NCBI GenBank assembly: GCA_030681595.1
Contig: JAUXSB010000003.1
Coordinates: 31,207 to 95,206, forward strand
Source of the DNA: Candidatus Omnitrophota bacterium
GTDB lineage: Bacteria > Omnitrophota > Gorgyraeia > Ghiorseimicrobiales > Ghiorseimicrobiaceae
Length of the DNA stretch: 64,000 nt
Direction: 5' to 3'
The position numbers and the translations under genes are program-made. Under the pieces are notes generated by a model. It made no database searches. It was not told the DNA's origin and saw only the letters and a list, made by a program, of their open reading frames with translations. Of the stretch, positions 4,752 to 50,800 are shown in pieces. Within the stretch, counting starts at the first letter, position 1. The number at the start of each line of letters is the position of its first letter.

Positions 4752-4799
4752 CTTTTAACTCCTTTAATGAACCCCGCAGATGGCGGGGCAAATTCGGGT

Positions 4800-5858
4800 T
4801 TATAACTTATGCCGCTTCGTTCTATAAGTTATACCCTCATTTAAAAGCGCATTTACAGTATCAACAAGATTAATCTGCGCCATACAGGTACGCGTGCACC
4901 TTCCGCAACCGGTACAGAAATAACGGTTATATTTATCCACGGAATATTTAAACTTACGGTAATATCTGTGCTTTTGCCTGCCGTCGCGCCCATGCCTAAA
5001 ATCTTCGCCTCCGGCAACTTTAGCGAAATCGTCCATCTGGCAATAATTCCAGATACGGTACCTAATGCCTTCATTTAAAGATAGTTCCATTTCATCTACC
5101 ACGTCGAAACAATAACAGGTTGGGCACACCGCGGTGCAATTTCCGCAGGCAACACACCTCTTTCCCACATTCTGCCAAACTTTAGAGTTAAAGCCTCTGT
5201 CAAAGGCGTCATATACTACGGGAAGAGCATCCCCTAATTCCTCCTTGAACACCTTCTTTTTTTCTTCTCTTATTTGCTCAAGCAAAGAAACCTCTGATTC
5301 TTTTGCCTCCCGGATATAGCCTAAACCTGTAACCAAACCTTCGCCTTTTTCTGAATTGATATGAATAATAAAACTTTTGCCTAAGTCTGTCAGCATCAGG
5401 TCATATCCGCCGCGGGGATTATGATTCCCCATCGAAGCACAGTTGGCAAATTTGTCGCAATAGTTGAGGCATTCAATACCAATTATAGTCATCTTATCCT
5501 TACGATTTAAATAATTGGGGTCTTCCGGGCTATCCCTAAATACCACATCCATACACTGTATTCCGGCAATATCGCAAGTATGTACCCCAAAAAGTATATA
5601 TTCCTCAAAAACATCTATTGCCTTTGCGGTCTTAAAAGGCCGAACACTAAACTTCAGCAGTTTCTCTTTCTGGGGAAAATAATATTTCTTGGGAGGAAGT
5701 ATCGTAGGAATATATTCCAAACATACTTCACTGATATCCCTTACCGGCCTAAAAACAAAAGAATTTTCCTTCTTTCTGGGCGCATAAAGCCGGGCCCTAC
5801 TCTTTAAATGTTCGAGCCATTTGCTCAAGCCCTCTTTCTGAATAATTGCGTATTTCAC
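4800..5858 (-). CDS. Hydrogenase beta subunit, 4Fe-4S ferredoxin-domain protein
   Basis: It has two ferredoxin-type motifs, CVACGNCTAVCPTCYC and CTGCGRCTRTCM. I moved the start to the GTG at 5858 (VKYAIIQKEG...). The 13 extra codons in the track run through the conserved hairpin and the ATTGAGGAG ribosome-binding site of the leader element. Confidence 0.75.
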   Translation of the reverse strand: MKYAIIQKEGLSKWLEHLKSRARLYAPRKKENSFVFRPVRDISEVCLEYIPTILPPKKYYFPQKEKLLKFSVRPFKTAKAIDVFEEYILFGVHTCDIAGIQCMDVVFRDSPEDPNYLNRKDKMTIIGIECLNYCDKFANCASMGNHNPRGGYDLMLTDLGKSFIIHINSEKGEGLVTGLGYIREAKESEVSLLEQIREEKKKVFKEELGDALPVVYDAFDRGFNSKVWQNVGKRCVACGNCTAVCPTCYCFDVVDEMELSLNEGIRYRIWNYCQMDDFAKVAGGEDFRHGRDGRQKHRYYRKFKYSVDKYNRYFCTGCGRCTRTCMAQINLVDTVNALLNEGITYRTKRHKL

Positions 5859-5864
5859 AAAATT

Positions 5865-6040
5865 CTCCTCAATGAGCACATAAGTTACAGAACACAATGA
5901 TGTAACTTATAAGTGCGAATTGATCCCGTTGAGTGCCTAAAAATTATAGTATAGAATTTTTAGGCATATTACGAAACGGGATAGATCCGATTAATGAGCC
6001 CCGAAGCTTCGGGGCGAATTGATCCCAACGATATGTCGGG
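5865..6040 (-). promoter_or_regulatory. Conserved structured upstream element, copy A (with a tandem extra half-unit)
   Basis: Read on the minus strand, an outer stem CCCGTT/AACGGG encloses the palindrome TGCCTAAAAATT-CTATACTAT-AATTTTTAGGCA. This is followed by GGGATCAATTC, the hairpin GCACTTATAAGTTACA...TGTAACTTATGTGCTC, ATTGAGGAG and the GTG start. A second GGGATCAATTC plus the hairpin GCCCCGAAGCTTCGGGGC and TCATTAA lies at 5992-6026. Confidence 0.55.
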
Positions 6041-6046
6041 ATGGCT

Positions 6047-8547: not shown

Positions 8548-8582
8548 CAAGCTGCAAGCTGCAAGCTCCAAGCTGCAAGCTT
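8548..8582. repeat. Five tandem 7-bp units CAAGCTN
   Basis: The sequence reads caagctg caagctg caagctc caagctg caagctt, directly upstream (in the minus sense) of the rluA-like start. Confidence 0.8.
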
Positions 8583-8589
8583 TTAGCCT

Positions 8590-8650
8590 GAAGCCTGTGG
8601 CTTTGGCTATATTGAAAGCCAAACCACTGCCCTCTGGCTGGTGGCTTGTA
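8590..8650. repeat. Single copy of the 44-bp hairpin repeat family (GGCTTTGGCTATATTGAAAGCCAAACC core)
   Basis: gtggctttggctatattgaaagccaaaccactgcc at 8597-8632 has the same core as the tandem array at 35608-35794. Confidence 0.8.
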
Positions 8651-8679
8651 GCATGAAGCATATTTTCTCGCTACTTCTT

Positions 8680-10800
8680 TCATTTAAACAGACTATTCGA
8701 TACAATAAACGAGGCAAAAACGATAGAAATCATAGACATGAGCTTTATAAGAATATTTAAGCTCGGCCCTGAGGTATCTTTAAACGGATCCCCTACAGTA
8801 TCTCCGACAACACCTGCCTTATGCGCTAAAGAGCCCTTTCCGCCGAAATGCCCTTCTTCAATATATTTTTTGGCATTATCCCATGCGCCGCCAGAATTTG
8901 CCATCATTACCGCAAGGACAAAACCGCTGACAGTAGCGCCGGTTAAAAATCCGGCAACAGCGTTAACGCCTGCAATCATTCCTACTAAAATAGGGGCGAT
9001 TATGGCTAAGAGTGAAGGCAAAATCATTTCCTTTTGTGCTGCAGAGGTTGCGATATCTACGCAGCGCGCGTAATCCGGCTTTACCTCTCCAGACATAAGG
9101 CCGGCGATTTCTTTAAACTGACGACGCACCTCTACAACAATCTTGCCTGCGGCGCGGCCAACCGCGCGCATAGTCATAGAACAAAATAAAAACGGAAGCA
9201 TCCCGCCTAAAAATAAACCAACTAAGGTAGCCGGATTCATAATGCTCAGATCTAAAGAAATATTTAAGCCTTTCTCTTTTACGATTAGGCCTATCTGATC
9301 GCGGTAAGCGGCAATTAAGGCAAGAGCGGTAAGTGCTGCCGAACCGATAGCAAAGCCCTTACCGGTGGCAGCAGTAGTATTACCCAATGAATCCAAGGCA
9401 TCGGTCCTCTTTCTTACTTCCGGATCCAGATGCGACATCTCGGCATTGCCTCCGGCATTGTCAGCTACCGGCCCATAGGCATCGGTTGCCAAAGTAATCC
9501 CTAAAGTAGAAAGCATACCTACGGCAGAAATAGCAACGCCGTAAAGACCGATGGCAGGGTTTGCGGCTCCCCCGGATAAAAAATAACTTGCCAATATTGC
9601 TGCTGCAACGATAATTACCGGAAGCGCCGTAGACATCATTCCTACGGCAAGCCCGCCGATAATCACAGTTGCGGGGCCGGTTAAGGATTGCTCGGCAATA
9701 AAACGCGTAGGCTTAAACAAGCTTGAGGTATAATATTCAGTAGAGAGTCCGATTAACACGCCTGCCAATAAACCCGCCAATATCGACCAATAGACTCCGA
9801 TATGCTGCCAGCCTAAACAATTCCAAATAAGAAAAAACGAAATTACCGCCACTAAAAATGAACTGGTAAAAACTCCCTTACGTAAAGCCGCGAGTAATAC
9901 TCCTTGAGATGCCTCTTCGCGGCTTTGTACAAAAAACGTCCCAATTATGGAAGAAATTACCCCGACTGCCGCCATAACCATCGGCACCGTGACACCCGCA
10001 AGCCCCAAACCCGCAGCAACGCCTAAGGCGGAAGTCGCGACAATCGAGCCCACATAGGATTCATAAAGATCAGCGCCCATCCCGGCAACATCGCCTACGT
10101 TATCACCGACGTTATCGGCAATTACCGCCGGATTTCTCGGATCATCTTCAGGGATGCCCGCCTCAATTTTTCCTACTAAATCAGCTCCTACATCCGCGGC
10201 CTTGGTAAATATGCCTCCCCCGACTCTGGCAAAAAGCGCCTGGGAAGAAGCGCCCATGCCAAAACAAAGCATAGTTGAAGTAATCGCGGTAATCTTATCA
10301 ATTCCTATAGGTATCGGATGGCTAGAATAATACCAATTAAGAAAATAATACCAAATACTTAAATCCAAAAGGCCCAAACCGACCACGGTTAAACCCATTA
10401 CTGTCCCGCTGGAAAAAGCCACGCGCAGGCCGGAATTTAGGCTCTTCATTGCTGCGGCTGCCGTACGAGCCGAAGACTGTGTGGCAATAGCCATCCCGAT
10501 AAAACCGGAAAGCCCGGAAAATAAACCACCGGTTAAAAAAGCAAATGGCACAAAAATCACCAGATATTTATTCAGCGCCAAAACCAAAAGAATAAAAAAT
10601 ACTATTGCAAAAAATAAAAATACGCCTAAATATTGCCGCTTAAGGTAGGCCCACGCGCCGATTCTAACTGCCTGGGCGATTTCGCGCATTTGCGCGTTAC
10701 CTTCATCTTTTTTTAAAATTGACAACGCCAAATACAGCGCAAACAAAAGCGCTATGATCGAACTTATGGGCGCTAAATATAATATATCAAAACTAGACAT
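8680..10800 (-). CDS. hppA: Membrane-bound ion-translocating inorganic pyrophosphatase
   Basis: 706 aa and polytopic. It carries the signature motifs [31 protein letters not shown] and [17 protein letters not shown]. Confidence 0.93.
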
Positions 10801-10960: not shown

Positions 10961-11632
10961 TTATTTCTTTCTTAACTTTTCTACTGCCTCGGAAACCATT
11001 TTACCTACCAGATCCTTGCATCCTAAACCAAACGCCAAAGCAAATCCTATCCCTAAAGACGCCAAAACAATGGTTATTAAAATATTTATAACCGCGGCGC
11101 CTATACTAAGCTGCTCTAACGCAATCACTACCGCAAGGACAGCAATAGCCACTTCAACAACCTTGGCTAAAATCTTTGCTTGTTCAATTCCGGCGTTTAT
11201 TGCCGCGGTACGTACTGTTGCCGCTAAGAACGTTGAAAGGAATATACCTAGCGCCAAAACAATAATCGCGATAATAACATTGGGCACATACAGTACCATC
11301 CTGTTTAACAGGTCTGCGGCTACGGTCAAACCGACAGCATTAACCGCCACCATTATCACGATCAAGACAACCAGCCAATAACATATAGCCCCTATCAATT
11401 CCGCAAGAGTTAATTTTATACCGCCTTTACTCAAGAAAGAATTAGCCCCAATCTGATCTGCGATAGAATCAATCTTGATAAGCTTAAAAAGCCTGGTAAT
11501 TAAATTCTGTACAAGTTTGGCGATAAGCCAACCTATGACTAAAATTACAATTACCAAAAGCAAATTGCTCACTAAAGTACCAATACGGTTGAGCAGGTTA
11601 CTTACCGGCTCAAAAAGAATTGTTTTCCACAT
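10961..11632 (-). CDS. Multi-pass membrane protein of the 'conserved TM helix' / MscS-N-terminal-like type
   Basis: Repeated amphipathic and TM segments (LLLVIVILVIGWLIAKLVQNLITRLFK...). I moved the start to the ATG at 11632 (MWKTILF) because GAAAGGAGG lies 4 nt upstream. The track's extra 8 codons (MSSLKGGS) are a read-through of the conserved leader. Confidence 0.5.
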   Translation of the reverse strand: MWKTILFEPVSNLLNRIGTLVSNLLLVIVILVIGWLIAKLVQNLITRLFKLIKIDSIADQIGANSFLSKGGIKLTLAELIGAICYWLVVLIVIMVAVNAVGLTVAADLLNRMVLYVPNVIIAIIVLALGIFLSTFLAATVRTAAINAGIEQAKILAKVVEVAIAVLAVVIALEQLSIGAAVINILITIVLASLGIGFALAFGLGCKDLVGKMVSEAVEKLRKK

Positions 11633-11636
11633 ACTG

Positions 11637-11755
11637 CCTCCTTTCAATGACGACACAACTTATGGAGTCACGGACGGCATAAGTTGTATGTCGGAATTGA
11701 TGCCGAAAGCTACGAGAAAATTTGTAGCAAATTTTCGAGTGTTTTGCTTTCGGCG
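11637..11755 (-). promoter_or_regulatory. Conserved structured upstream element, copy B
   Basis: Read on the minus strand: CGCCGAAAGC-AAAACA-CTCGAAAATTTG-CTA-CAAATTTTCTCG-TA-GCTTTCGGC, then ATCAATTCC, the hairpin GACATACAACTTATG...CATAAGTTGTGTC, GTCATTGAAAGGAGG and the ATG. Confidence 0.55.
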
Positions 11756-11828
11756 CAATGCATAACTTACAAATTCCAAAACCTCCGGATGAACGAGTTA
11801 TTTACGCGTAGTAAAACCTACCTTTTCA

Positions 11829-15131: not shown

Positions 15132-15380
15132 TTAATGGTTTATATGCGGATGTTTTAGCTTATACCATTCGCAGAAAAAGCATTTCTCAATGCCGCGTTT
15201 ATCGCTGACTCTGCCGCAATATTGAGCCGCGACATGCCAACACTCTTTATCCGATTTATGGCTTTGGCGATATGGAAAGCCAAACCATTGCCTTGCCGGC
15301 TTATAGGCGGGGCAATTTTCTCTTGATTCTATTTTACATTCAAAATATTCCCAGCATGTTTTGGCATCTTTGTCAGGCAT
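15132..15380 (-). CDS. Small Cys-rich protein with two C-W motifs ('two-CW'-type)
   Basis: I take the start at the ATG at 15380 (MPDKDAKTCWEYFEC...CPAY...ECWHVAAQYCG...CFFCEWYK). The ATG overlaps the upstream kinase stop by 8 nt (ATGCCTGA). It is a paralog of 25662-25904. Confidence 0.55.
   Translation of the reverse strand: MPDKDAKTCWEYFECKIESRENCPAYKPARQWFGFPYRQSHKSDKECWHVAAQYCGRVSDKRGIEKCFFCEWYKLKHPHINH
15257..15304. repeat. Copy of the 44-bp hairpin repeat embedded in-frame in the two-CW gene
   Basis: ttatggctttggcgatatggaaagccaaaccattgccttgccggcttat is about 90% identical to the units at 35608-35794. It encodes KPARQWFGFPYRQSHK, a segment absent from the paralog. Confidence 0.75.
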
Positions 15381-16917
15381 GCTTTTTAGGTATAGTAAAG
15401 ATGAATTTGCTCCCCTCGCCCGGTTCCGACTCAACCCAAATTTTACCTTTATGCGCCTCAACAATTGCCTTTACTATGGATAAACCTAAGCCGGTTCCTC
15501 CCTGTTTACGTGATTCCCTATCGTATATTTGCTTAAATTTATCAAAAATTTTTTCCTGATCCTCTTTGGCTATGCCTTTTCCGGTATCAGAAACCGAACA
15601 CTCTATTGCTCCGGAAACATCTTTAACATCAATATGGATCCGGCCGTTTTCCGGAGTAAACTTAACCGCGTTAGAGATAAGATTAATAAAAACCTGCTCC
15701 AGCTTACTAAAATCTGCTAAAAACTCTACCCCTTCAGAAATAGAATAACCGGCGTTAAGATGCCGCTGCGCTATTAGAGGCTCAAAATCCGCCAGGCATT
15801 GTTGAATAAGCCGTTTTATATCTATCCGCTCTATATTTAGCTCATATTCTCCGGATTCTATTTTAGATAAATCCAACAGGTCTCCGGCCAAACCCAAGAG
15901 GCGGCTCGAAGTATTCCTGATTATTTCCAGGCATTGTTTCTGCTCTTCATTTATCGCGCCGGTTATCCCATCCAATACATTATTTACGCTTGCCTTGATT
16001 ATAGACAAAGGGGCCTTTAATTCATGGGTAACCATAGAAACAAAATCTGCCCGCATCTTCTCTATCGCCCTAATCTTACTGATATCTTTAAAAACCCAAA
16101 CGGCTCCGGTAACCCTGCTGTCGTTATCTTTTAATAATGAAAGACTGCTTAGGACAGGGATCTTCGCGTTGGGGCTGGGGCTTAATATAAATTCTGCCTC
16201 AAGAGTATTGCTGCCTGATGAAAGTAATTTTTCAAAATAGCAAACATTTTCGCATAGCGATCCAGAAAAAACCTGACAACACTCCCTGCCTAATACGTCC
16301 TTAGCCAAAAACCCGCTCATCAGTTCCATCGCGGGGTTAAAAGAGGTGATTTTTTTTTCGGAATCTAGGGTAATCAGGCCCTCGGTAAGGCTTAAAAGTA
16401 TAGCTTCAAGCTTTGTCTTTTCTAATGTCAGGCGATAGAGTTGCTTGTCTAAAAGGATGCTTACCTTAGAAAGGATCTCAACCGGATCCGAAGGAGAAAT
16501 AACCGCATCCGGTATGGCAATATCCCGCTTAGCCTTCCGGTAACCAGCAATAAATTTTTTAACTGTCTTTATGATTATTTCCGGAGTGTTAAAATCCTTA
16601 ACCATGAATTCATCTGCGCCGGTCTCAAGGCTCCAGAATTTTTCACTCTCTCCCTCCCGGCTGGTTAACATTAACACGGGTATACCAGAAATATCTTTAT
16701 CATCTTTAAGCAGGCGGCAAACCTGATAACCGTTCATCCGCGGCATAAATATATCCAAAAGTATTATATCCGGCCGCTCCCGATAAACGCTCCTGATGGC
16801 TTCGATTCCATCCGATGAAGTAACTGTCAAATACCCCTCATTTTTAAAAATGGAACTCAGCATATCCCTAACGGTAGGGCTGTCATCAGCGATTAAAATT
16901 TTCCCTTTATTATTCAT
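15373..16917 (-). CDS. Hybrid sensor: N-terminal receiver - PAS - histidine kinase
   Basis: 514 aa. The receiver region reads ILIADDSPTVRDML...LLDIFMPRMNG. It also has the H-box HELKAPL, the N-box NLISNAVKFT, and GTGLGLSIVK. Confidence 0.88.
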   Translation of the reverse strand: MNNKGKILIADDSPTVRDMLSSIFKNEGYLTVTSSDGIEAIRSVYRERPDIILLDIFMPRMNGYQVCRLLKDDKDISGIPVLMLTSREGESEKFWSLETGADEFMVKDFNTPEIIIKTVKKFIAGYRKAKRDIAIPDAVISPSDPVEILSKVSILLDKQLYRLTLEKTKLEAILLSLTEGLITLDSEKKITSFNPAMELMSGFLAKDVLGRECCQVFSGSLCENVCYFEKLLSSGSNTLEAEFILSPSPNAKIPVLSSLSLLKDNDSRVTGAVWVFKDISKIRAIEKMRADFVSMVTHELKAPLSIIKASVNNVLDGITGAINEEQKQCLEIIRNTSSRLLGLAGDLLDLSKIESGEYELNIERIDIKRLIQQCLADFEPLIAQRHLNAGYSISEGVEFLADFSKLEQVFINLISNAVKFTPENGRIHIDVKDVSGAIECSVSDTGKGIAKEDQEKIFDKFKQIYDRESRKQGGTGLGLSIVKAIVEAHKGKIWVESEPGEGSKFIFTIPKKHA

Positions 16918-20463: not shown

Positions 20464-21738
20464 TTACTCCAATTTAAATTTACTAATAGACGACTTAAAT
20501 GCCTCGGATAATTTATTCAACTGCATAGCGCTATTGGCTATCTGCTTGGCCGCCACAGCAAACTGCTTGGTAACCGTATCAATGTTTTTCATTGCCTCGG
20601 CGACTTGCGAGGAGGCGGTCTTCTGCTGCTGGGTAGCCAGCGAGATTTCCTTGGAAATCTTGGCACTGTCTTCTACCATCTTTAAACCTTCGGAAACTCC
20701 CTGCGTTGAGTCTTCTATGCCCATTACTACATTATTAGTCTCGGATTGTATTTCACCAATCAGCTGCCTAATCTCACCGGTAGACTCTATGGAACGCTCG
20801 GCTAATTTCCTTACCTCGGAAGCGACTACGGCAAAGCCGCGCCCTGCCTCTCCTGCGCGCGCCGCCTCAATAGCGGCATTTAAAGCCAAAAGGTTGGTCT
20901 GGCTTGAGAGGTCGTCAATCATGGAAGTAATCTTGCCGATGGCCTGCGATTTTTCGCCTAGGCATAAGATTTTCTTGGCGGCATCGGAAACTTTGGCGTT
21001 TATCTCTTTCATTTCAAGCAGGGTGCGCTCTGCGGCACGGGTGACGTTAAAGGCATTTTCGGCAATCGCTGTGGCTGTGCGGGAAAGCTCTTCCATCGTA
21101 GAAGTGGTTTCAGTAACAGCGGAAGCCTGCTCAGTTAAAGCTACGCTCTGCTCTTCGGCGGCAGAACGAATCTGCGTAGTTTCAGCGCTCACTTCCAAGC
21201 CAGCCTCACGAATTTGTTTAATCAACTCTTTCAGGCTTTTAATCATATGGTTGAAAGATTCTACCAGAGGCTTAAGCACAGGCAAGATATCTAAGGCCAT
21301 CTCCTGCGCCAGATTGTTTTCTTTCGAAGCATTTATTGTAAATACAGTTAACCTGCTTATGTCTTCCTCTAATTCCCTTCTTGCCCTAACCGCAGACCCC
21401 TCTTCCATCCTTTTATCTATAAGCATCTGATGCAAGATTTCAACGGTCTTATTAAAAGTCTCGGAGAATTTCCCAAACTCATCATTTGTTTTTACATCTA
21501 ATACTAAATCGTAATTACCCATAGCCAGGCCTTTAGAGGTAATCAATATTATGTCTATGGCGGCTACTATCCCGCGGATCTTCCGCCAGCTAAAAAAAAC
21601 ACATACCCCTACTAATACCAATTGTATCAACACCTTTAAAATTATGGGTATATTCAATAATCCCACCGCTAAAATTCCAAGCGAACCGGCAACAGTACAG
21701 CTGCCGCTTACCAAAATCAATTTATGCCTGACTAGCAT
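20464..21738 (-). CDS. Methyl-accepting chemotaxis protein (two TM, HAMP, no large sensor domain)
   Basis: 424 aa. It has the highly conserved signalling-domain core [40 protein letters not shown]. Confidence 0.9.
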
Positions 21739-24219: not shown

Positions 24220-25374
24220 TTAAGTTTCCCTATCTGCTATTTCTTCCCTGAATTTGACTACATGTTTTTTAAGATTATCCGCGAGATCATTCAGCTTGGT
24301 GGAACTAGCAACTGACTGCTTGGCCGCCACGGCAAACTGCTTGGTAACCGTATCGATGTTTTTCATTGCCTCGGCGACTTGCGAGGAGGCGGTCTTCTGC
24401 TGCTGGGTAGCCAGCGAGATTTCTTTGGAAATCTTAGCACTGTCTTCTACCATCTTTAAACCTTCGGAAACACCGCGTGTTGAATCTTCTATGCCCATTA
24501 CTACGCTGTTAGTTTCCGCCTGTATTTCATTAATCAGCTGCCTAATCTCCTCGGTGGACTCGACTGAACGCTCGGCTAATTTCCTTACCTCGGAAGCGAC
24601 TACGGCAAAGCCGCGCCCTGCCTCTCCTGCGCGCGCCGCCTCAATAGCGGCATTTAAAGCCAGGAGGTTGGTCTGGCTTGAGAGGTCGTCAATCATGGAA
24701 GTAATCTTGCCGATGGTCTGCGATTTTTCGCCAAGTGCCAATATTTTCTTGGCGGCATCGGAAACTTTGACGCTTATCTCTTTCATTTCAAGCAGGGTGC
24801 GCTCTGCGGCACGGGTGACGTTATACGCGTTTTCAGCGATAGATGAAGCGGTACGGGAGAGCTCTTCCATTGTGCTGGTAGTTTCAGTGACGGCGGAAGA
24901 CTGTTCAGAGGCACCCGAGGCCTGTTCTTCGGTCGAGGCCATTATTTGGGCAGCGCAGGAAGTTACTTCCAGGCTTGCCTGCTGGATCTGATACATTAAA
25001 TTTCTTATACTTGCTATCCTCTTTACTGCCGCTCCTTCTTCCATCCGTTTATCAATAAGCATCTCATGAAGGATATCTATGGTGCGGTTAAAACTTTCGG
25101 CGAATTTACCAAATTCATCCTTGGTTTTTATATCCAACACTAAATCATAGTTGCCATAATTAAGCCCTTTGGATACATCCACAATCAACTCTAAAGGCGC
25201 AAGAAGCCTAAAAATGCCATATATGATAAGAATTACGCTAACCGCTATTAAGATAAACTTTGAACCGAGGTTTAAAGAAGGGGTTAATTGCAGGGTGTCT
25301 ATCCAGAATAAGCCGATAAAAAGCAAAATAATAGCTGCGCCGGTGATTAATAATAATTTATACTTTACACGCAT
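24220..25374 (-). CDS. Methyl-accepting chemotaxis protein, paralog of 20464-21738
   Basis: 384 aa. It has the same signalling core. The 3' ~600 nt are nearly identical at DNA level to the other MCP. Confidence 0.9.
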
Positions 25375-25661: not shown

Positions 25662-25904
25662 TTACTGACTAACCTTAATTTCATCCCCTTTACCGTGATC
25701 CTTATAGACCTTACAAATCTTACAAACGCTGACATCTATGCCGGATTCGCCTTTACAGATAGTACCTTTTATTATCCAGCAAGGATATTCCTGTTTTTTG
25801 TATGCCGCGCAACTTGGCGCCCCACCGGGCTTAATCTCACAACCTCTTACTTCCCAACAAGCTGTTTTTCCGGACCAGAATCCTGTTCCTTTTGGTAAAG
25901 CCAT
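25662..25904 (-). CDS. Small Cys-rich protein with two C-W motifs ('two-CW'-type)
   Basis: 80 aa: ...TACWEVRGC...SCAAYKKQEYPCWIIKGTICKG...VCKICKVYK. A strong RBS (GGGGAGG) lies 5 nt upstream of the ATG. Confidence 0.6.
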   Translation of the reverse strand: MALPKGTGFWSGKTACWEVRGCEIKPGGAPSCAAYKKQEYPCWIIKGTICKGESGIDVSVCKICKVYKDHGKGDEIKVSQ

Positions 25905-25908
25905 CTTT

Positions 25909-26028
25909 TCCTCCCCTCAATGACGGCATAACTTATGGAGCCAGAGACGACATAAGTTATCAGCCGGAATTGATCCCGATAGTTACAAGAAAATTTAGTA
26001 TAAATTTTCGCAGTGTTTTACTATCGGG
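25909..26028 (-). promoter_or_regulatory. Conserved structured upstream element, copy C
   Basis: Read on the minus strand: CCCGATAGT-AAAACA-CTGCGAAAATTT-ATA-CTAAATTTTCTTG-TA-ACTATCGGG, then ATCAATTCC, the hairpin GGCTGATAACTTATG...CATAAGTTATGCC, GTCATTGAGGGGAGG and the ATG. Confidence 0.55.
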
Positions 26029-26147
26029 ACAATGATCCCCGTCGGTTATCTTATCCTCTGCAATTCGAAGAATTACGAGGACTTAGTCCCTGAAATTGCT
26101 TCGCAATTTCTAGGGGCGAGACGGGACAAACCGACCTTTCTATTTTC

Positions 26148-27963: not shown

Positions 27964-27975
27964 TTTTTATTTTTT

Positions 27976-28095
27976 ACCCCGTTAGAGATACCCTATCTAC
28001 TGCTTAAGACCAACTACTTATTTATAGAAGCTCTATTCTGTTTTTGCCTATCCCGTAATAGACGGCCATCTATGATGGCCTATCTCTAACGGGGT
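27976..28095. repeat. 120-bp element bounded by terminal inverted repeats ACCCCGTTAGAGATA / TATCTCTAACGGGGT (copy 2)
   Basis: The left repeat is at 27976-27990 and the right repeat at 28081-28095. The aldolase TAG stop (28088-28086) lies inside the right arm. The interior is unrelated to that of copy 1. Confidence 0.75.
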
Positions 28096-28877
28096 TTATG
28101 CTTTATCTCTTCATACAGCTCAAATGCCTGTTTTACCTTCGCCTTCTTATGTACGATTTCCCTCACTGCCATAATCATTCCAACAGGACAGTCAGATTGA
28201 AAAATATTCCTGCCCATATCCACCCCTATCGCTCCGTCGGACACTGCATTAAACGCCAGCTCCAGGGCAGCTTTTTCCTCAATTTTTTTTCCTCCGGCAA
28301 TAACCACCGGAACCGGGCATTCCTTAACTACCTGCGTAAAATTCTCGCAATAATAAGTTTTTACAAAATGCGCACCCAATTCCGCGGCAATCCTGCAACA
28401 CAGGCTCAAATAACGCGCGTCGCGGTTCATTTCTTTGCCTACGGCAGTAACTGCTAATACCGGAATGCCGTACTTTTGGCCTTCATCTACAAGATGAGCA
28501 AGGCTCAACAGCGTCTCTTTCTCGTATTCGCTACCCACAAATATCGAAAGAGCAACCGCGGAAACATTTAACCGTAAAGCATCCTCCATTGAAACAGTGA
28601 GCCCTTCGTTAGCTAAGGATTTTCCGATAACGCTTGTGCCTCCGGAAACGCGCAAAACAACCGGGACGTCATCTTGGGCATTAACGGACGCACGCAAGAT
28701 ACCCCGAGTAAGCATAAGAGAATCCGCGTACGGCAGAAGCGGCTTAATAGTTTCTTTCGGCTCTTCTAAACCTGAAGTAGGCCCTAAAAAATAACCATGG
28801 TCTATAGCCAGCATTACAGTACGTCCTGTCTCCGGTTTTATTATACGAGATAACCTGTTTTTTAATCCCCAATCCAT
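28086..28877 (-). CDS. Class I aldolase of the DhnA/FbaB/LsrF family
   Basis: It has MLAIDHG, VLRVSGG, the Schiff-base Lys context FVKTYY, and AGG. I placed the start at the ATG at 28877 (MDWGLKN), which is preceded by GAGGAGGAGG. The track's MSSLRRKS extension reads through the leader. Confidence 0.7.
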   Translation of the reverse strand: MDWGLKNRLSRIIKPETGRTVMLAIDHGYFLGPTSGLEEPKETIKPLLPYADSLMLTRGILRASVNAQDDVPVVLRVSGGTSVIGKSLANEGLTVSMEDALRLNVSAVALSIFVGSEYEKETLLSLAHLVDEGQKYGIPVLAVTAVGKEMNRDARYLSLCCRIAAELGAHFVKTYYCENFTQVVKECPVPVVIAGGKKIEEKAALELAFNAVSDGAIGVDMGRNIFQSDCPVGMIMAVREIVHKKAKVKQAFELYEEIKHKPR

Positions 28878-28883
28878 GGATTT

Positions 28884-29002
28884 CCTCCTCAATGACGACA
28901 TAATTTACGGAAACGAAGTTGACGTAAATTATATGTCGGAATTGATCCCGCCGAATGTACCAAAATTATAGAATATAATTTTGGTACATTTTATGAGGCG
29001 GG
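28884..29002 (-). promoter_or_regulatory. Conserved structured upstream element, copy D
   Basis: Read on the minus strand: CCGCC-TCATAA-AATGTACCAAAATTATA-TTC-TATAATTTTGGTACATT-CGGCGG, then GATCAATTCC, the hairpin GACATATAATTTACG...CGTAAATTATGTC, GTCATTGAGGAGGAGG and the ATG. Confidence 0.55.
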
Positions 29003-29013
29003 ATAAACATTAA

Positions 29014-35593: not shown

Positions 35594-35607
35594 AAATTAC
35601 CTTTGCA

Positions 35608-35794
35608 CTTATGGCTTTGGCTAAATTGAAAGCCAAACCATTGCCTTGTGGCTTATGGCTTTGGCTATATTGAAAGCCAAACCATTGCCTTGTGGCTTAT
35701 GCCTTTGGCTATATTGAAAGCCAAACCATTGCCTTGTGGCTTATGCCTTTGGCTATATTGAAAGCCAAACCATTGCCTTACCGGCTTATGCCTT
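35608..35794. repeat. Tandem array, 4.2 copies of a 44-bp hairpin unit
   Basis: The unit is CTTATGSCTTTGGCTATATTGAAAGCCAAACCATTGCCTTGTGG. Copies lie at 35608, 35652, 35696 and 35740, with a partial copy at 35785. Each unit contains the hairpin TGGCTTTGGCT-atattgaa-AGCCAAACCA. Confidence 0.9.
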
Positions 35795-36032
35795 ATTCAA
35801 ATTTACTATTTTAATTATATCAACTTTCTTCAAATATTGCAACCCAATAAATTACCGCGAGCCTTATTATAGTTATAGCACATAAATTAACTACTGGCGC
35901 AGAAAATAACGCCTTATACATAAGCGCATTAAGGTTACAAGACATTCTGCTATGCAGGCAACACTTCAACTTATCTTTCCGCATTAATGCTCATTTAAAT
36001 ATAATGCTGCTTATGAAAATATTAATGCAGTA

Positions 36033-39766: not shown

Positions 39767-40650
39767 TTAACAGGTTTAAACTCTTGCCACCCAAAAAACT
39801 CAGGATATTCACGCCAGGGTCCCTCGCAAATTTTGAAATATTTGCATTCTTCACACTTCGGCCCTTTAAGTTTTCCATGTTCTCTGCGCCACTGGTTAAA
39901 ATTGGTTATCGGTTTAATATCAAATACCTTGGTTTCAGGAATAATCGCTTCACTAGCACAATTGGCATATTCGCTTAAAAAACAATACGGTATGGCTTCA
40001 GTTTTTGGCATTTTTTTCTTCCTAATGCCAATTTCCAGGCCGCGTTTTAAATAAAGAATAATATCTTTTTTCTGCGGTATTAGCCAACTATGATTCGCTA
40101 ATGCGTTTCCTAAAATATGAGGAAAGGAAAAACGATATTCAACCACCCCTAAGCCAACTAACATCAAAGCAATCTTAGGTAAAAAGCGGTAATTCAATGC
40201 AGTAATAACTGTATTAGTAAATACTACGCGACCAGAAGAAAGGAGATGCTTAATACCACAAATCGTCTGAGCGAAACTTCCCCTCGCTCCCGTATGGCTA
40301 TCATGCAACTCAGCATTATGTCCATGTACCGATATAGTAAAAAGACTTGCACCTGCCTCTATCATTTTTTTACAAAAATCTTTATACCTAAACATTCTTC
40401 CGTTGCTTTGAATATGAACAATATATCCTAACTTTTTAGAATATCTTACCAAGTCTATGATATCAAAACGTATTGTAGGTTCTCCACCTGTAAAAATTAC
40501 CTCTTTATAACTATCTTTCGAATCAGCTAAAATAGTTTCTATCTGTGAGCGCGCCATATCGTTGTAGATTTTGCGCTTGTTACCTTGGACACAAAAACTA
40601 CAGTGGTTATTACATCTAAAACTAATTTTTATATCCAGCCTCTTATGCAT
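39763..40650 (-). CDS. Small radical SAM protein, paralog S12
   Basis: It has RCNNHCSFCVQG, FTGGEPT, SVHGHNAELHD and IPYCFL. The C-terminus is CEECKYFKICEGPWREYPEFFGWQEFKPVK. Its closest paralog is 55967-56872. Confidence 0.85.
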   Translation of the reverse strand: MHKRLDIKISFRCNNHCSFCVQGNKRKIYNDMARSQIETILADSKDSYKEVIFTGGEPTIRFDIIDLVRYSKKLGYIVHIQSNGRMFRYKDFCKKMIEAGASLFTISVHGHNAELHDSHTGARGSFAQTICGIKHLLSSGRVVFTNTVITALNYRFLPKIALMLVGLGVVEYRFSFPHILGNALANHSWLIPQKKDIILYLKRGLEIGIRKKKMPKTEAIPYCFLSEYANCASEAIIPETKVFDIKPITNFNQWRREHGKLKGPKCEECKYFKICEGPWREYPEFFGWQEFKPVK

Positions 40651-40681
40651 ACATCTATCCTAACCTTAATTATCCGTTGTC

Positions 40682-41614
40682 TTACGGCTCGCTTTTAACA
40701 TGTTTTATTGTCTCTTCTTTGGAAACAAAAACAGCGTATAGTTCTTGCGAAGAAAAATATTTATCCATCGCATAAAGGCCGGGACATATTTCATTCAAAA
40801 AACAAACACTACAACACTCAACCTTGCCATATGACCATCCTCTTTGGACTTTAAGGCCCTTTTCATCTAAGAAATAAATCGCGCGCTTCTCTCTCTTTAT
40901 TATTTTTCTGGCTTCCGTAGAACAATGTGCAAAATCAGCCATGTAACATAAGGGTACGCGTTCCGCCCTAAAAGTTCTCTTTTGCTCGGCTAAAAAATGC
41001 ATTGCCCTATTGAGCTCTAATTCAAAATCTATCAGTCGGGGAATCGTATCGGGATTTTCTGATGCGCGGTTCATCGAAGGGTCAATATTATTCCAGATAA
41101 AATGGCGAATAAACGGATATCTATTCACAAGCCACGCCGTAATTCTGCTTAAATGATCGGCATTATATTTATTAATCACGGTAATAACATCAACCTGCAA
41201 ATTTAACTTTTTGGCATTGTTAAGCGTTTTTTTAATGTTACATAAAGAATCCTTGTTCTCAGTAAGAAAACCCTGAATATCAGCACTATCAGAGTAGATG
41301 GATAAATTGATATGGTTTAATCCTGCCTCTGCCAATGAGTTAATATATTTAAAGTCGGCTGTTTTTTGGCCATTCGTTATTATTCTGACTGGAAAATTTT
41401 TGTTTGTTGCATACGCGATCAATTCAATGAGATCTGGATATAGGGTCGGCTCTCCTCCGCTTAAAATAACCCCATCGCAACCTATCTTGACATAATAATC
41501 AATTAACTCCTTAGCTTTCTTAAGAGATATGGTTTTATCAAACGACGGATTAGAACAAAATCTGCATTTTTGATTACAAATACGCGTAACCTGTATATAA
41601 GCTAATTCGGCCAT
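40682..41614 (-). CDS. Small radical SAM protein, paralog S11
   Basis: It has ICNQKCRFCSNP, LSGGEPTLYP and VPLCYM. The C-terminus is CCSVCFLNEICPGLYAMDKYF. Confidence 0.85.
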   Translation of the reverse strand: MAELAYIQVTRICNQKCRFCSNPSFDKTISLKKAKELIDYYVKIGCDGVILSGGEPTLYPDLIELIAYATNKNFPVRIITNGQKTADFKYINSLAEAGLNHINLSIYSDSADIQGFLTENKDSLCNIKKTLNNAKKLNLQVDVITVINKYNADHLSRITAWLVNRYPFIRHFIWNNIDPSMNRASENPDTIPRLIDFELELNRAMHFLAEQKRTFRAERVPLCYMADFAHCSTEARKIIKREKRAIYFLDEKGLKVQRGWSYGKVECCSVCFLNEICPGLYAMDKYFSSQELYAVFVSKEETIKHVKSEP

Positions 41615-41618
41615 GTTT

Positions 41619-42644
41619 TCAGTAATTGCATTTATGTTTATGCTTGTTTTTTATTTCTGAATCAAATATGCTAATCCGCTCTAAAGTATGCAATATTTCT
41701 TTCGGATTTTTATCTGAAAGCGTTAGATTAAAATTAGGATAAACTTTTAGATAATCTCTTCTTACCCCCGGGCATATTTCACACAAAGAACAGCCTCTGC
41801 ATTCTCTGTATTTATAAAAATCTTCTTTGGCGATATCATTTTGAGTCCTGAGATTATTTATCCCGCGCGAATCAAGATATAAGTTATTATGATATAAATT
41901 TTCTTTTAATTCAACACTGGACCATTCATAAGAAGAGAGGATACATAACGGAAAACCGCAAGCAGAAATTTTATCCGTAGGGTTATCCCCTCCTAACGCC
42001 TTTAACGCTTTTAAAAGATAAGGCTGAATCTTATTTAGCGGAGGAAGTATCTTTTTGTAAAAAGTACTGTCATTGCCGCCTAAATCCATAAATTTAAATT
42101 TTACCCTGAATGGCGTATGCCTTAATATTTTTTTAAGATGAGTCGCCATGCCCTCTAATTCTTTATAATTCAAGCTATTAATTACCGTGTTGAAATTAAT
42201 CGCTAGCCTTTCTCTTATCTTTTTATTATCCTTATTAAATGATTCGATATTTAGTAAAGCCTTTTCCTGTAAAGAATGGCAAAACTTATTTCTTGATATG
42301 GCATTTGCAACCTTTGGGATATGCGAGTGAAAAGAAAAATTTATCTGCACGACTCCGCCTTTAATAACCTTAACTAAAAAATCATAGTAACTAAGCATTG
42401 AACCGTTAGTTGTAACCTTAAGTTTTAAATTACATTTTTTGGCTTCTTCCAATATTTTTAAAAAATCTGGCCTAATGAATGATTCCCCGGTCATTAACAT
42501 AACTGTATCTTCCTTGTAACTCTTAACTTTTTGAAACAATTGCCTAATTTCTCCAAAAGAAAGATCTTTTTTATGCTTATGCTGCCTATCCAGACAAAAT
42601 AAACAGTTGAAATTACATTTTTGGGTAATGCCTGTAATAATCAT
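41619..42644 (-). CDS. Small radical SAM protein, paralog S10
   Basis: It has KCNFNCLFCLD, LMTGESF and FPLCIL. The C-terminus is CRGCSLCEICPGVRRDYLKVY. Confidence 0.8.
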   Translation of the reverse strand: MIITGITQKCNFNCLFCLDRQHKHKKDLSFGEIRQLFQKVKSYKEDTVMLMTGESFIRPDFLKILEEAKKCNLKLKVTTNGSMLSYYDFLVKVIKGGVVQINFSFHSHIPKVANAISRNKFCHSLQEKALLNIESFNKDNKKIRERLAINFNTVINSLNYKELEGMATHLKKILRHTPFRVKFKFMDLGGNDSTFYKKILPPLNKIQPYLLKALKALGGDNPTDKISACGFPLCILSSYEWSSVELKENLYHNNLYLDSRGINNLRTQNDIAKEDFYKYRECRGCSLCEICPGVRRDYLKVYPNFNLTLSDKNPKEILHTLERISIFDSEIKNKHKHKCNY

Positions 42645-45693: not shown

Positions 45694-45696
45694 TCT

Positions 45697-47055: not shown

Positions 47056-47063
47056 ATGAATAA

Positions 47064-47990: not shown

Positions 47991-47994
47991 ATCA

Positions 47995-48912: not shown

Positions 48913-48922
48913 TGATAATAGT

Positions 48923-50455: not shown

Positions 50456-50536
50456 TTAAAAGCGTGAAAATGTGTTTTCTTTCGAATAAATACGCAAATT
50501 ACTGTGAATCATTTTTTTAAATTTACGGTTATCCCC

Positions 50537-50775: not shown

Positions 50776-50800
50776 CTGGGTAAAACTTGCGTATCCATAA

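Follow-up and report, generated by a model that had tools for sequence, protein, structure and literature searches.

The closest described counterparts of the element reported here are the REP2 (CREN) repeats of Neisseria and the IR-A/IR-B repeats of Borrelia plasmids, which are 120–180-bp intergenic repeats without terminal inverted repeats (Delihas 2011, PMC3184786). Each contains two internal stem-loops and is placed directly upstream of unrelated open-reading frames with a ribosome-binding site (and ATG) at the 3′ end, and both have been proposed to originate from duplication of an upstream region together with its 5′ UTR (PMC3184786). The Omnitrophota element is similar in that the unit is ~135 nt long, has two stem-loops and no terminal inverted repeats, carries a ribosome-binding site at its 3′ end and precedes unrelated open-reading frames. 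The two were compared by description and their hosts are unrelated, so REP2/IR is regarded as an analogue and not a homologue. REP2/IR is known from ~25 copies in one genus, whereas the Omnitrophota element is present in at least 150 copies across a phylum and its phages, and while for REP2 a promoter has been mapped and contact regulation described, the Omnitrophota element has a −10-like hexamer in its long copies only. Unlike REP2/IR, it is also found before tRNA and tmRNA genes, within operons as its second hairpin alone, inverted behind stop codons and in tandem arrays.

Correia elements (CREE) of Neisseria and other MITEs (ERIC, BOX, RUP) are short dispersed intergenic repeats that form long mRNA hairpins, with possible outward promoters and a possible role as RNase III targets that alter mRNA stability (summarised in PMC3184786). 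Correia elements are bounded by terminal inverted repeats, duplicate a TA target and occur in either orientation, whereas no such repeats or duplications were seen for the Omnitrophota element, which has one orientation in ~80% of copies and a fixed junction with the Shine-Dalgarno (SD) sequence. REP/BIME elements, which can stabilise upstream mRNA, resemble it in their homogeneity within genomes, divergence between genomes, clusters or arrays and intergenic placement in operons; REPs differ in being ~35 nt long with a GTAG-type head, in lying 3′ of genes and in flanking their RAYT (Y1 HUH) genes, whereas the RAYT genes seen in the stretches examined here are not flanked by the Omnitrophota element. 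The intergenic RNase III sites of phage T7 and the 5′-hairpin mRNA stabilisers of the ompA, aprE and thrS leaders also place an irregular ~20-bp hairpin with an internal loop just 5′ of a ribosome-binding site in a polycistronic transcript; the likeness, which includes the mode of action proposed here of processing followed by protection of the flanking cistrons, is a functional analogy with no sequence relation. CIRCE/HrcA, which operates on DNA as well as on mRNA, likewise has an inverted repeat, its arms 9 nt apart, that precedes groES and dnaK, but the CIRCE sequence TTAGCACTC-N9-GAGTGCTAA is missing from the Omnitrophota element, whose targets extend far beyond chaperones.

The Omnitrophota are uncultivated, mostly ultra-small bacteria, and to our knowledge almost nothing is known of their gene-expression signals. 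In the 64-kb window (the whole stretch of DNA that was analysed), an earlier note had pointed to four look-alike upstream elements on the coding strand, and covariance model (CM) scores, shuffled folds and the sequence itself all bore this out. The window contains four full copies, all on the minus (coding) strand, together with one mini unit and one degenerate inverted copy. With a covariance model built from homologues of other genomes, the full copies scored 137, 122, 100 and 80 bits (E-values 1e-14 to 3e-26), and the folding of each copy was better than that of its own shuffles (z −4.2 to −9.1). The exact motif GG(G/C)ATCAATTC occurs five times in the window, on the minus strand only and each time within the two-hairpin architecture.

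Copy D (28875..29008, minus strand; 137.1 bits, fold z −9.06) is located 5′ of a gene for a DeoC/LsrF-type aldolase (Pfam DeoC) and shows the complete arrangement, with hairpin 1 (HP1, ATCCC...GGGAT) at 28945-29004, the linker GGGATCAATTC at 28939-28949, hairpin 2 (HP2) at 28889-28945, TCATTGA at 28889-28895, the SD sequence GGAGG at 28884-28888 and the ATG at 28875-28877, all on the minus strand. Copy C (25903..26034, minus strand; 99.9 bits, supported by its fold) precedes a gene for an 80-aa Cys-rich protein, with its linker at 25967-25977, TCATTGA at 25917-25923 and ATG at 25902-25904. Directly 5′ of copy C, a branched HP1-type module (26035..26127, minus strand), in which GTCCCGTC...GACGGGGAT encloses two small hairpins, is connected to the copy by the short linker CATTG (GGGGATCATTGTCCC). 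By blastn this module is 90–94% identical to sequences in two other genomic stretches (L045 and L021), and its two small hairpins are also found within HP1 of the orthologous copy D (L119). Copy B (11628..11760, minus strand; 80.1 bits) lies 5′ of a gene for a membrane protein with a mechanosensitive-channel transmembrane helix and has the linker GGCATCAATTC at 11694-11704, TCATTGA at 11644-11650 and ATG at 11630-11632.

Copy A (5855..5986, minus strand; 121.9 bits) is placed 5′ of a gene for a 4Fe-4S dicluster (HydB-like) protein (Pfam Fer4_22), with its linker at 5917-5927, TCATTGA at 5869-5875 and a GTG start at 5856-5858. An extra half unit had been proposed at this copy. The extra unit exists, in tandem and 5′ of copy A (5991..6041, minus strand; 13.4 bits with the expected alignment), but it is a complete mini unit, in which a small HP1 (CCCGAC..GTTGGG) is followed by GGGATCAATTC at 6016-6026, by a short GC hairpin that replaces HP2, and by TCATTAA without an SD sequence; it begins 4 nt past the stop codon of a hypA-like gene. 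The inverted degenerate copy (4767..4857, plus strand; 44.3 bits) is antisense to its flanking genes and overlaps the 3′ end of the ORF at 4800-5897 on the minus strand. It consists of a mini GC-rich HP1, the linker CAAATTC, a canonical HP2 and TCATTTAAAAG, again without an SD sequence, and belongs to an inverted subclass with the linker pair UAAAU/AUUUA, of which ten comparable inverted copies were found in other genomes.

The general unit reads (A/G)TCCC-HP1-GGGAT, CAATTC-HP2-TCATTGA and GGAGG-N4-7-start codon. HP1 is variable and can be long, short, branched or absent, with an apex that is usually AT-rich. Its outer stem is closed by ATCCC/GGGAT, so GGGAT belongs to hairpin 1, and GGGAT is kept even where its partner in the stem is missing (L021, L045). 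HP2 is a rod of ~22 bp with an invariant 2x2 UC/UC internal loop, which runs on through the linkers by pairing of UCAAU with AUUGA and ends in a loop of 3 to 17 nt. Apart from CAAUUC and UC/UC, few unpaired nucleotides are conserved. Several features that had been read from the window hold on the sequence: outer stems that vary and remain complementary, an AT-rich inner palindrome with a −10-like hexamer, a second hairpin built on ATAACTTAT/ATAAGTTAT arms, and TCATTGA followed by GGAGG and the start codon, with a spacing after the SD sequence of 4–6 nt in the window. The linkers, which had been called invariant, are so within the window but vary with compensation across the phylum.

Selection on structure, also suggested before, is supported by strong covariation in both hairpins. 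With a pairing structure set by hand, 91.4% of cells were paired, compared to 70% in shuffles and 31–44% in slid controls, and double changes were present in 37 of 39 pairs. At the linker-helix pair, C-G was counted 117 times and A-U and U-A 13 times each, with no unpaired case, and one phage copy has a compensatory deletion of a base pair. Since the pattern used for the genome scan fixes GGGATCAATTC and TCATTGAGG, linker conservation was judged only on the 45 CM hits outside that pattern. In HP1, the sequence of the apex is conserved phylum-wide while the stems beneath it vary. The stems are almost purely Watson–Crick (G:U 31 versus A:C 44 in HP2, 110 versus 96 in HP1), which is what a DNA palindrome or a repeat of recent origin by copying would be expected to show; these wobble counts neither support nor exclude a sense RNA, and a loop test was used instead. 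The apical loops of HP2 are strand-biased, with UUCG in 51 cases against 5 of CGAA, cUUCGg in 14 against 1 and UACG in 18 against 4, which we count in favour of a sense-strand RNA.

Further copies and covariation were recovered in other genomes. The genome scan returned at least 117 stretches from 185,579 genomes, nearly all of them Omnitrophota MAGs among the matches listed, and the covariance model gave 154 hits in 743 kb; at least 150 copies were found across Candidatus Omnitrophota MAGs and Mu-like phage contigs. At the gathering threshold of Rfam 15, a tRNA was the sole match in the whole window, and an Rfam search of copy D by E-value gave only miRNA-hairpin noise far under the cut-offs. 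Literature searches with the motif strings returned only primers in unrelated papers, and searches for structured RNA, palindromes or UTRs of Omnitrophota found nothing matching. The element appears to be an undescribed gene-expression cassette, comparable in general type to the Neisseria REP2 repeats. The previous opinion that a metabolite riboswitch is unlikely is supported.

About 80% of copies adjoin a start codon, and 117 of 150 have an ORF start 2–29 nt past TCATT; in the scan-selected set the start codon is most often 10–11 nt past TCATTGA. In the ~80% that share one orientation, the 3′ end is set to within 2 nt against the SD sequence and start codon, similarity between copies of the same genome ends at the SD, and the unit boundaries are sharp. 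As suspected from the window, this is a portable family ahead of unrelated genes, with 93 clusters among 124 downstream proteins. The genes include groES, dnaK, clpP, recA, ssb, rpsB, rpoA, pilT and ferredoxin, often ones needing high or separately set expression, and the same families recur across genomes (pilT five times, ferredoxin four, rpoA three). TCATTGA adjoins the mature 5′ end of a tmRNA (L050) and of a tRNA-Glu (L069), placements that the earlier note had overlooked. Obligate operons contain copies too: in a Mu-like phage, those of the head operon lie on either side of the major head gene, and a unit consisting of HP2 only occupies the groES-groEL spacer; in L090 the full unit stands before groES and HP2 alone before groEL. 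Copies with a short HP1 begin a median of 13 nt from the upstream stop codon, compared to 63 nt for copies with a long HP1, and the inverted copies are located behind stop codons. From the operon-internal, phage head, rpoA, tmRNA and tRNA positions, we infer that the element must lie within transcripts.

Duplicative behaviour, too, was overlooked in the earlier note and is seen in tandem arrays with a period of ~140 nt, in the inverted copies, in the similarity of copies within a genome and in presence or absence between close relatives. HP1 identity is 0.69 within genomes versus 0.52 between them, and 18% of within-genome pairs are >90% identical versus 0.09% between genomes. Orthologous sites differ in presence of the element between relatives at 78–95% amino-acid identity; it is missing at the ADH-aldolase site of the closest relative (95% amino-acid identity) and at the CheW site of three relatives. 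Judged by these comparisons, the element is dispensable at a given locus.

No terminal inverted repeats were found at the unit ends, where ..ATCCC and TCATTGA are not inverted repeats of each other, no regular target duplications were seen and no transposase was linked to the element in the examined stretches. TCATT is often present on both sides of a unit and is mostly the end of the preceding one. Insertion next to a CCTCC or TCATT target was rejected, as neither a guide-like complement nor a clean empty site was found and the L118 site is not a simple empty one. Mobility driven by IS200/IS605 or RAYT was also rejected: tblastn with approximate IS200 TnpA and E. coli RayT queries gave one Y1 gene, flanked by a different REP, and the Y1/RAYT genes at L055 477-1151 and L119 1072-1740 are flanked by another palindrome, CCACACCCCCGGGGTGTGG. 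A MITE is at odds with the strongly biased orientation and the lack of terminal inverted repeats and target-site duplications, and an integron attC site with linkers (GGGATCAATTC and TCATTGA) that on reading show no GTTRRRY core, flanking genes of the housekeeping type and dispersed copies. Other, unrelated hairpin repeats are present in the same genomes.

The reading that we prefer, tentatively and with somewhat less than even confidence, is a modular, duplicative leader or intercistronic RNA cassette, phylum-wide in Omnitrophota and their phages, that would control mRNA stability or processing and the presentation of the ribosome-binding site. A 5′-UTR hairpin tied to the ribosome-binding site was the part of the previous interpretation that is best supported by the present results. 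Sense-strand transcription would place the cassette in the RNA, either as the 5′ leader of the gene that follows or as the intercistronic spacer before it, and there the HP2 rod, closed by UCAAU/AUUGA, would fold directly against the SD sequence with HP1 folding beside it. The downstream cistron, or the tRNA or tmRNA precursor, would thereby gain a defined, structured 5′ end that may act as a block to exonucleases or as an endonuclease processing site, and the upstream cistron would gain a 3′ hairpin. The SD sequence would stay single-stranded and insulated from upstream sequence, and the predicted outcome is raised or uncoupled expression of the cistron within compact polycistronic units. Copies would spread via duplication or recombination and be readily gained and lost. 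The near equality of G:U and A:C and the dispensability at a given locus count against this leader reading, which needs neither the inverted copies behind stop codons nor the tandem arrays, and a hairpin that simply protects would leave both the conserved AT-rich HP1 apex and the invariance of the UC/UC loop unexplained.

A promoter may also be present in the long HP1 module, and a promoter reading is compatible with the leader reading in that it could hold in addition for the long-HP1 copies. As an explanation in its own right, a REP2-type portable promoter, with the long HP1 as promoter, the −10-like sequence at its apex, a start in its 3′ arm and HP2 plus SD as the transcribed leader, is possible but doubtful. 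In long copies a gATAAT hexamer ends exactly 15 nt before GGGAT; among 90 distinct long copies its last position is T in 94%, A2 and T6 are combined in 61, and a purine is found at the predicted +1 in 76. This fixed position and the purine are what a promoter would give, as are the greater upstream space of long-HP1 copies, the full unit at groES with HP2 alone at groEL in L090, and targets (groES, dnaK, recA, rpsB, clpP, tmRNA, tRNA) that typically have their own promoters. Moreover, the analogous repeats of Neisseria and Borrelia carry a promoter, ribosome-binding site and ATG (PMC3184786). The promoter and operator proposed earlier retain the hexamer in long copies but lack a −35 partner, and many copies have no AT-rich apex. 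In the window copies, a sigma-70 scan of the coding strand found no promoter in the HP1/HP2 body and no −35/−10 pair. The sole coding-strand match within copy coordinates (11647-11619, TTGAAA-17-AACAAT) runs across the TCATTGA, SD and start codon of copy B into the ORF, and so cannot drive the gene. By reading, the sequence 17 nt upstream of the hexamer is not TTGACA-like, only 13% of hexamers have T at position 1, and the hexamer consists of loop and AT stem in equal parts, so that an AT-rich palindrome would mimic it. Apex and hexamer are missing from the groES-groEL unit and from the phage copies and those before tmRNA and rpoA (L080), which have a short GC hairpin instead. Covariation of the basal HP1 stem is also unexplained if its 5′ arm is untranscribed, and good TATAAT boxes are located 5′ of HP1 where the preceding gene is transcribed divergently (L084). 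Sigma-54, ECF and other promoters, including one in HP2, were rejected by reading, as candidate hexamers coincide with stem positions that covary and the loops range from 3 to 17 nt in length. An intrinsic terminator was rejected as well, since HP1 is followed by AUCAAUUC and HP2 by GGAGG with no U tract after either; a terminator scan found none within the six copies themselves and one site at 26090-26078 (minus strand), inside the branched module, with the tail CGTAATTCTT, which is not a clean T run.

A palindromic DNA repeat of the MITE, REP or BIME type, selfish or neutral, that builds up between genes without a dedicated host function would account for the within-genome likeness of HP1, the sharp unit boundaries, the tandem and inverted copies, the variable presence at orthologous sites and the G:U to A:C ratio, and would match the other hairpin repeats of these genomes. 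We consider it unlikely, given the prevailing orientation with a 3′ end placed to within 2 nt at the SD and start codon, the recurrent pilT, ferredoxin and rpoA families, the strand bias of UUCG and a phage copy ahead of the major head gene, and no terminal repeats, regular target duplications or linked transposase were found to go with it. The conserved HP1 apex over variable stems, the invariant UC/UC, the GGGAT kept without a partner and the chaperone and protease genes among the targets would instead suit a site for a global regulator or RNA-binding protein, either the AT-rich AAAATT-N9-AATTTT of HP1 as a CIRCE-like operator or the UC/UC loop with its flanking helix, or both, controlling a co-regulated regulon. 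Such a regulon is improbable with targets this heterogeneous, many copies without the apex, absence at orthologous genes of close relatives and no candidate protein identified. Least probable of all, and a very distant prospect, is a catalytic or RNA polymerase-modifying cis RNA, that is, a new self-cleaving ribozyme, a dedicated RNase site for trimming before SD, tRNA or tmRNA, or a two-hairpin antiterminator like put of phage HK022. Two adjacent helices linked by conserved unpaired nucleotides, strong covariation, a 3′ edge placed exactly at the mature 5′ end of one tmRNA and one tRNA, and copies in phage late regions would fit, but the conserved unpaired nucleotides beyond CAAUUC and UC/UC are few, HP1 can be long, short, branched or absent, no Rfam ribozyme model matched, and RNase P already accounts for tRNA and tmRNA 5′ ends. 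A bolder form of the leader reading, to which we give a low probability, is a RiboJ-like 'insulator' in which the module (GGGAU-CAAUUC junction, UCAAU/AUUGA helix and UC/UC loop) would undergo self-cleavage or cleavage by a dedicated endonuclease, or else reprogram the polymerase as put RNA does, giving a standardised, protected 5′ end at the SD for about a tenth or more of the phylum's transcription units, including tRNA, tmRNA and phage late genes.

If mRNA stability, processing or translation is set by the element, as the leader reading supposes, it would represent a major unrecognised regulatory layer and a ready-made expression part for such organisms; if it carries a promoter, it would provide a first handle on Omnitrophota transcription units, and the RiboJ-like form would establish a novel class of cis-acting RNAs and, with it, a new layer of gene expression that acts generally in an uncultivated phylum. 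The element enlarges the small, poorly understood class of upstream repeats that bear a ribosome-binding site (REP2, Borrelia IR) and may serve as a marker for binning Omnitrophota contigs and for assigning phage hosts. Regarded as no more than a repeat, it still marks true start codons and accounts for the mis-called MSSL... N-termini, which had rightly been noted as spurious and arise at an ATG within the 3′ arm of HP2.

Both strands were read for the four upstream regions of the window, and all four are on the minus strand, as is the gene that follows each: copy A (5855–5986) before a HydB-like gene, copy B (11628–11760) before a membrane protein gene, copy C (25903–26034) before a Cys-rich, two-CW gene, and copy D (28875–29008) before an aldolase gene. 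A four-way alignment gave a mean column identity of 73% with long invariant blocks, and a motif search of the window found TCATTGA followed by a purine run in all four. Exact matches to GG(G/C)ATCAATTC number five in the 64-kb window, all of them on the minus strand and in the context of the element. All four copies fold as a pair of neighbouring hairpins, with greater stability than their dinucleotide shuffles (z from −4.2 to −9.1), and a covariance model with source sequences almost entirely from homologues in other genomes scored the copies at 137, 122, 100, and 80 bits. The observation is real and far beyond chance, and the shared blocks, folds, and scores place the four regions in one family, as the earlier note had claimed. 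The extra unit it saw beside copy A is present as a mini unit with a short GC first hairpin (5991–6041, minus strand), recovered with covariance model R1; the noted spacing from the Shine-Dalgarno (SD) sequence to the start codon holds for the four copies at 4–6 nt, and the MSSL... N-termini it called spurious are artefacts of an ATG in the 3′ arm of the second hairpin. False extensions of this kind occur in the ORF track at 10961–11656 and 28086–28901. The family is larger than that note saw, as R1 also recovered an inverted, degenerate sixth copy on the plus strand (4767–4857); the C-terminal ~19 residues of ORF 4800–5897 are encoded by the antisense of this copy.

On the coding strand, the unit runs 5′ to 3′ from a short AT-rich flank through the first hairpin (HP1), the linker CAATTC, the second hairpin (HP2), the linker TCATTGA, and the SD sequence GGAGG to a start codon 4–7 nt further on. 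HP1 has the closing stem (A/G)TCCC...GGGAT, a variable lower stem, an asymmetric purine-rich internal loop on its 5′ side, and an upper stem, usually AT-rich (AAAATT/AATTTT), under a pyrimidine-rich loop. HP2 had been drawn too short, as the linkers also pair, UCAAU of the first with AUUGA of the second, to form its base. Above this helix come an invariant symmetric UC/UC internal loop, a covarying 4–5-bp helix, a 5′-side bulge of 1–2 nt, an 8–10-bp helix with typical arms AACUUAUG/CAUAAGUU, and a small apical stem-loop. HP1 is modular, being a single long hairpin in copies A–D, a short GC hairpin in the mini unit, in phage copies, and in copies before tmRNA and rpoA, or a branched domain with extra small hairpins, as at 26035–26127 in the window and in locus L119 from another contig. 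Within a genome, similarity between units starts ~60–70 nt before GGGAT and stops at the SD, indicating that the unit is discrete.

When one genome from each of 185,579 species was scanned with the pattern GGGATCAATTC-N36-48-TCATTGAGG, at least 117 stretches matched, with ~100 true copies among the matches listed. Nearly all of these listed true copies are in Candidatus Omnitrophota MAGs, counting several deposited as ‘uncultured Planctomycetia’, which are presumed to be Omnitrophota too; the remaining listed matches, in other phyla, are chance matches without a hairpin. The covariance-model search that the earlier note had proposed found further copies, R1 reporting 154 in 743 kb of scan-derived loci. 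True copies in bins labelled Smithella or Smithellaceae (L007, L068) and Victivallales (L014) point to either mis-binned Omnitrophota contigs or horizontal transfer. The source of the window is related to the ‘GWA2_41_15’ groundwater lineage, and the aldolases of the closest syntenic contigs, one of them from Hainich groundwater, share 95% and 86% amino acid identity with that of the window. Copies are also carried by six IMG/VR viral contigs; in one, a Mu-like phage (L128) with portal, gpT major head, and FluMu_N genes, units immediately precede the major head gene and the gene after it.

The 3′ boundary of the unit is tightly placed, with an ORF starting 2–29 nt after TCATT in 117 of 150 copies, and likewise in a few further copies at locus edges or before small ORFs; in the scan-selected set, starts fall 9–12 nt after TCATTGA in 84 of 105. 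Placement at the 5′ end is variable, with the linker 17 to ~700 nt beyond the upstream stop codon, and upstream ORFs are co-directional in 78 of 87 cases. Downstream proteins form 93 clusters. Families recurring across genomes are a PilT-like ATPase (five times), a 61-aa ferredoxin (four), RpoA (three), and, twice each, ClpP, GroES, SSB, aldolase, the V-ATPase K subunit, and others; DnaK, RecA, and ribosomal protein S2 are single cases. Two copies adjoin stable RNA genes with base-exact junctions, as an Rfam tmRNA match (L050) and an ARAGORN tRNA-Glu (L069) each begin at the base right after TCATTGA. At a third locus (L033, 1440–1590, minus strand), a ~130-nt structured insert separates a copy from a tRNA-Val gene; its 5′ start duplicates the first 15 nt of the tRNA (GGGCAATTAGCTCAG), and it contains TCATTGA...GGATCAATGG, the linker motifs with their order exchanged. 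Some ten copies point the opposite way to the genes around them, with a short GC-rich HP1 and UAAAU/AUUUA-type linkers, and in nearly all of them the preceding gene's stop codon lies in or near TAAATGA, the reverse complement of TCATTTA. The window copy at 4767–4857 belongs to this class, except that an ORF runs through its HP2.

The element also behaves as a repeat. HP1 identity is 0.69 between copies of the same genome and 0.52 between genomes, and pairs above 90% identity make up 18% of comparisons within genomes versus 0.09% between them. Full units also stand two or three in a row before a single gene, repeating every ~140 nt, as at clpP (L064) and a Trm112-like gene (L074); the inner units of these arrays end in CTCATT without an SD, and TCATTGAGGAGG is found in the last unit only. 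At the ADH-aldolase junction, the element directly follows the stop codon in both the window and L119 (86% identity), where HP1 has two extra hairpins, while the closer relative L118 (95%) has a 64-nt spacer without it and the hairpins found there in L120 and L121 are unrelated. At the CheW/two-CW junction of copy C, the L119 and L121 spacers are 16–20 nt and L118 has other hairpins. Quite different long hairpins occupy the same intergenic sites at L120 2880–2985, L121 2890–2950, and L118 2935–2990 and 5600–5700, the L120 hairpin being ~45 bp of 9–10-nt repeats (GGTTGCGTAA/TTACGCAAC), and hairpin-rich spacers before start codons may be typical of these genomes as a whole.

In the 150-copy alignment, 91.4% of cells hold standard pairs, compared to 70% with partners shuffled and 31–44% with partners slid, and both partners have changed in 37 of 39 pairs, the covariation that the earlier note had expected, although these counts are biased towards the model structure to which the alignment was fitted. 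HP2 nevertheless came out alike in an independent MAFFT/RNAalifold run, as did part of HP1, and 17 of the 23 pairs found there were compensated. The scan pattern had forced the linkers to be invariant, so their variation was judged on 45 model hits outside it, in some of which UCAAU/AUUGA is replaced by UUAAU/AUUAA, UAAAU/AUUUA, or UAAGU/ACUUA. Over the whole alignment, the variable linker pair is C-G in 117, A-U in 13, U-A in 13, and unpaired in none, and one phage copy has lost the same base pair on both sides (GGGAU-AAUUC...UCAUU-AGGAGG). The UC/UC loop showed no variation in the alignment or model hits.

Whether this structure acts as RNA or DNA was addressed by a wobble test and a loop test, with opposite outcomes. 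In the stems of functional RNAs, G:U is usually much better tolerated than A:C, whereas HP2 has 31 G:U and 44 A:C among ~2,700 Watson-Crick cells and HP1 has 110 and 96 among ~2,000; equal rarity would be the pattern of a DNA palindrome or a recently copied repeat, as a purely selfish palindromic repeat, one rival reading, would have it. The loops are non-palindromic and so report the strand. In the HP2 apical region of 137 distinct sequences, UUCG outnumbers its complement 51 to 5, cUUCGg 14 to 1, and UACG 18 to 4. UNCG loops are specifically stabilising in RNA, and cUUCGg on different stems argues for repeated selection on the sense-strand RNA, although some UUCG cases are common by descent. 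Position also argues for RNA. In L090, an HP2-only unit fills the 60-nt spacer of groES-groEL, an operon co-transcribed in bacteria generally; units bracket the major head gene in a phage late region; and in three genomes units precede rpoA, a gene that most bacteria have inside a ribosomal-protein operon.

The best explanation is a duplicative leader or intercistronic RNA cassette, which would account for most of these facts. HP2, with or without HP1, would fold in the transcript directly against the SD or, before stable RNAs, against the 5′ end of the tRNA or tmRNA precursor. It may define protected ends and insulate the ribosome-binding site, as the analogous T7 RNase III sites, REP-stabilised operon segments, and 5′-hairpin stabilisers suggest, so that expression of one cistron could be set within compact operons. 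Such a cassette fits the SD junction, the intra-operon positions, the phage head gene between two units, the sense-strand UUCG loops, and the bias to genes needing high or separately tuned expression. It leaves unexplained the wobble result, the invariant UC/UC loop, and the conserved HP1 apex, the latter two suggesting a specific protein or RNase partner; a regulator binding site and a ribozyme or put-like RNA are further rivals. The interpretation in the earlier note, a portable promoter and operator with a 5′-UTR hairpin or a global regulator's site, was partly right. A portable promoter of the REP2 type in the long HP1 is rather unlikely, and would be compatible with the leader cassette as an added function. 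Long HP1s carry a −10-like hexamer (consensus gATAAT) ending exactly 15 nt before GGGAT, with T at the last position in 94% and A at position 2 plus T at position 6 in 61 of 90 distinct sequences, and a purine at the predicted start in 76 of 90. However, T is found at its first position in just 13%, half of it is AT stem, no −35 partner was found, and a consensus promoter scan of the window copies gave no coding-strand promoter able to drive the downstream gene, the sole coding-strand match within a copy (11647–11619, copy B) spanning TCATTGA, the SD, and the start codon. Apex-less copies also precede genes that certainly need transcription, such as tmRNA. Long-HP1 copies have more upstream space (median 63 versus 13 nt for short-HP1 copies), and L090 has a full unit before groES and a bare HP2 before groEL, facts that fit a promoter in HP1 and, no less well, a hairpin at the 5′ end of a transcript whose promoter lies shortly before it; L084, L007, and array spacers have TATAAT-like boxes immediately 5′ of HP1.

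No Rfam family matches the element, and a literature search found no paper with its motifs or describing such an element in Omnitrophota. It fails the tests that define a MITE, REP/RAYT, an integron attC, an intrinsic terminator, or a sigma-70 promoter. The closest known kind is the class of Neisseria REP2 (CREN) and Borrelia IR-A/IR-B, 120–180-bp repeats without terminal inverted repeats, with two internal stem-loops, that lie immediately upstream of unrelated genes and supply promoter, ribosome-binding site, and ATG (Delihas, PMC3184786). The element agrees with this class in position and structure, and of a promoter it has the −10-like hexamer alone. Unlike these repeats, it spans a whole phylum and its phages, has modular hairpins with strong covariation, also precedes stable RNA genes, occurs as HP2 only inside operons, and includes a subclass of inverted copies behind stop codons. 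Nothing gives cause to expect homology, and the element fits best as a variant of a kind that is known but rare. Precedents exist for upstream repeats with a ribosome-binding site; a phylum-wide structured leader cassette shared with phages would be noteworthy to specialists.

No transposase linked to the element was found in the loci examined. IS200-like Y1 (RAYT-type, Pfam Y1_Tnp) genes occur in L055 (477–1151, minus strand) and L119 (1072–1740, plus strand), both flanked by a palindrome other than the element (CCAAAACCACACCCCCGGGGTGTGG on both sides in L055), and constitute a separate, unrelated REP/RAYT system. Between its aldolase and response-regulator genes, the window has another repeated, structured upstream element (27964–28094, minus strand), closed by the long-range stem CCCCGTTAGAGATA...TATCTCTAACGGGG. 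It has no Rfam match and is 88–91% identical to segments in L045, where it adjoins the start of a different gene, a putative malate/lactate dehydrogenase-like ORF, and L080; the closest relative, L118, lacks it, and the two genes overlap there. A 44-nt unit with the hairpin GGCTTTGGCTATATTGAAAGCCAAACC is repeated ~5 times in tandem at 35596–35815, a CRISPR array being rejected as there are no spacers. Single copies are at 8582–8669 and 15256–15304, one just downstream of a 706-aa membrane ORF (8680–10800, minus strand), a putative H+-pyrophosphatase, and another inside ORF 15132–15464. Two neighbouring ORFs share DNA segments of 74–88% identity (20515–20814 with 24289–24588, and 21389–21537 with 25025–25173); their translations resemble methyl-accepting chemotaxis proteins, the L121 orthologue of one having Pfam MCPsignal, and the similarity would indicate recent tandem duplication or gene conversion in the chemotaxis cluster. 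Finally, a 60-nt segment ending GGTTCTCC(T/C)CCGGTAA occurs eight times at 1–3-kb intervals over 40434–56718 (plus-strand coordinates), probably marking a conserved motif in a minus-strand run of paralogous genes.
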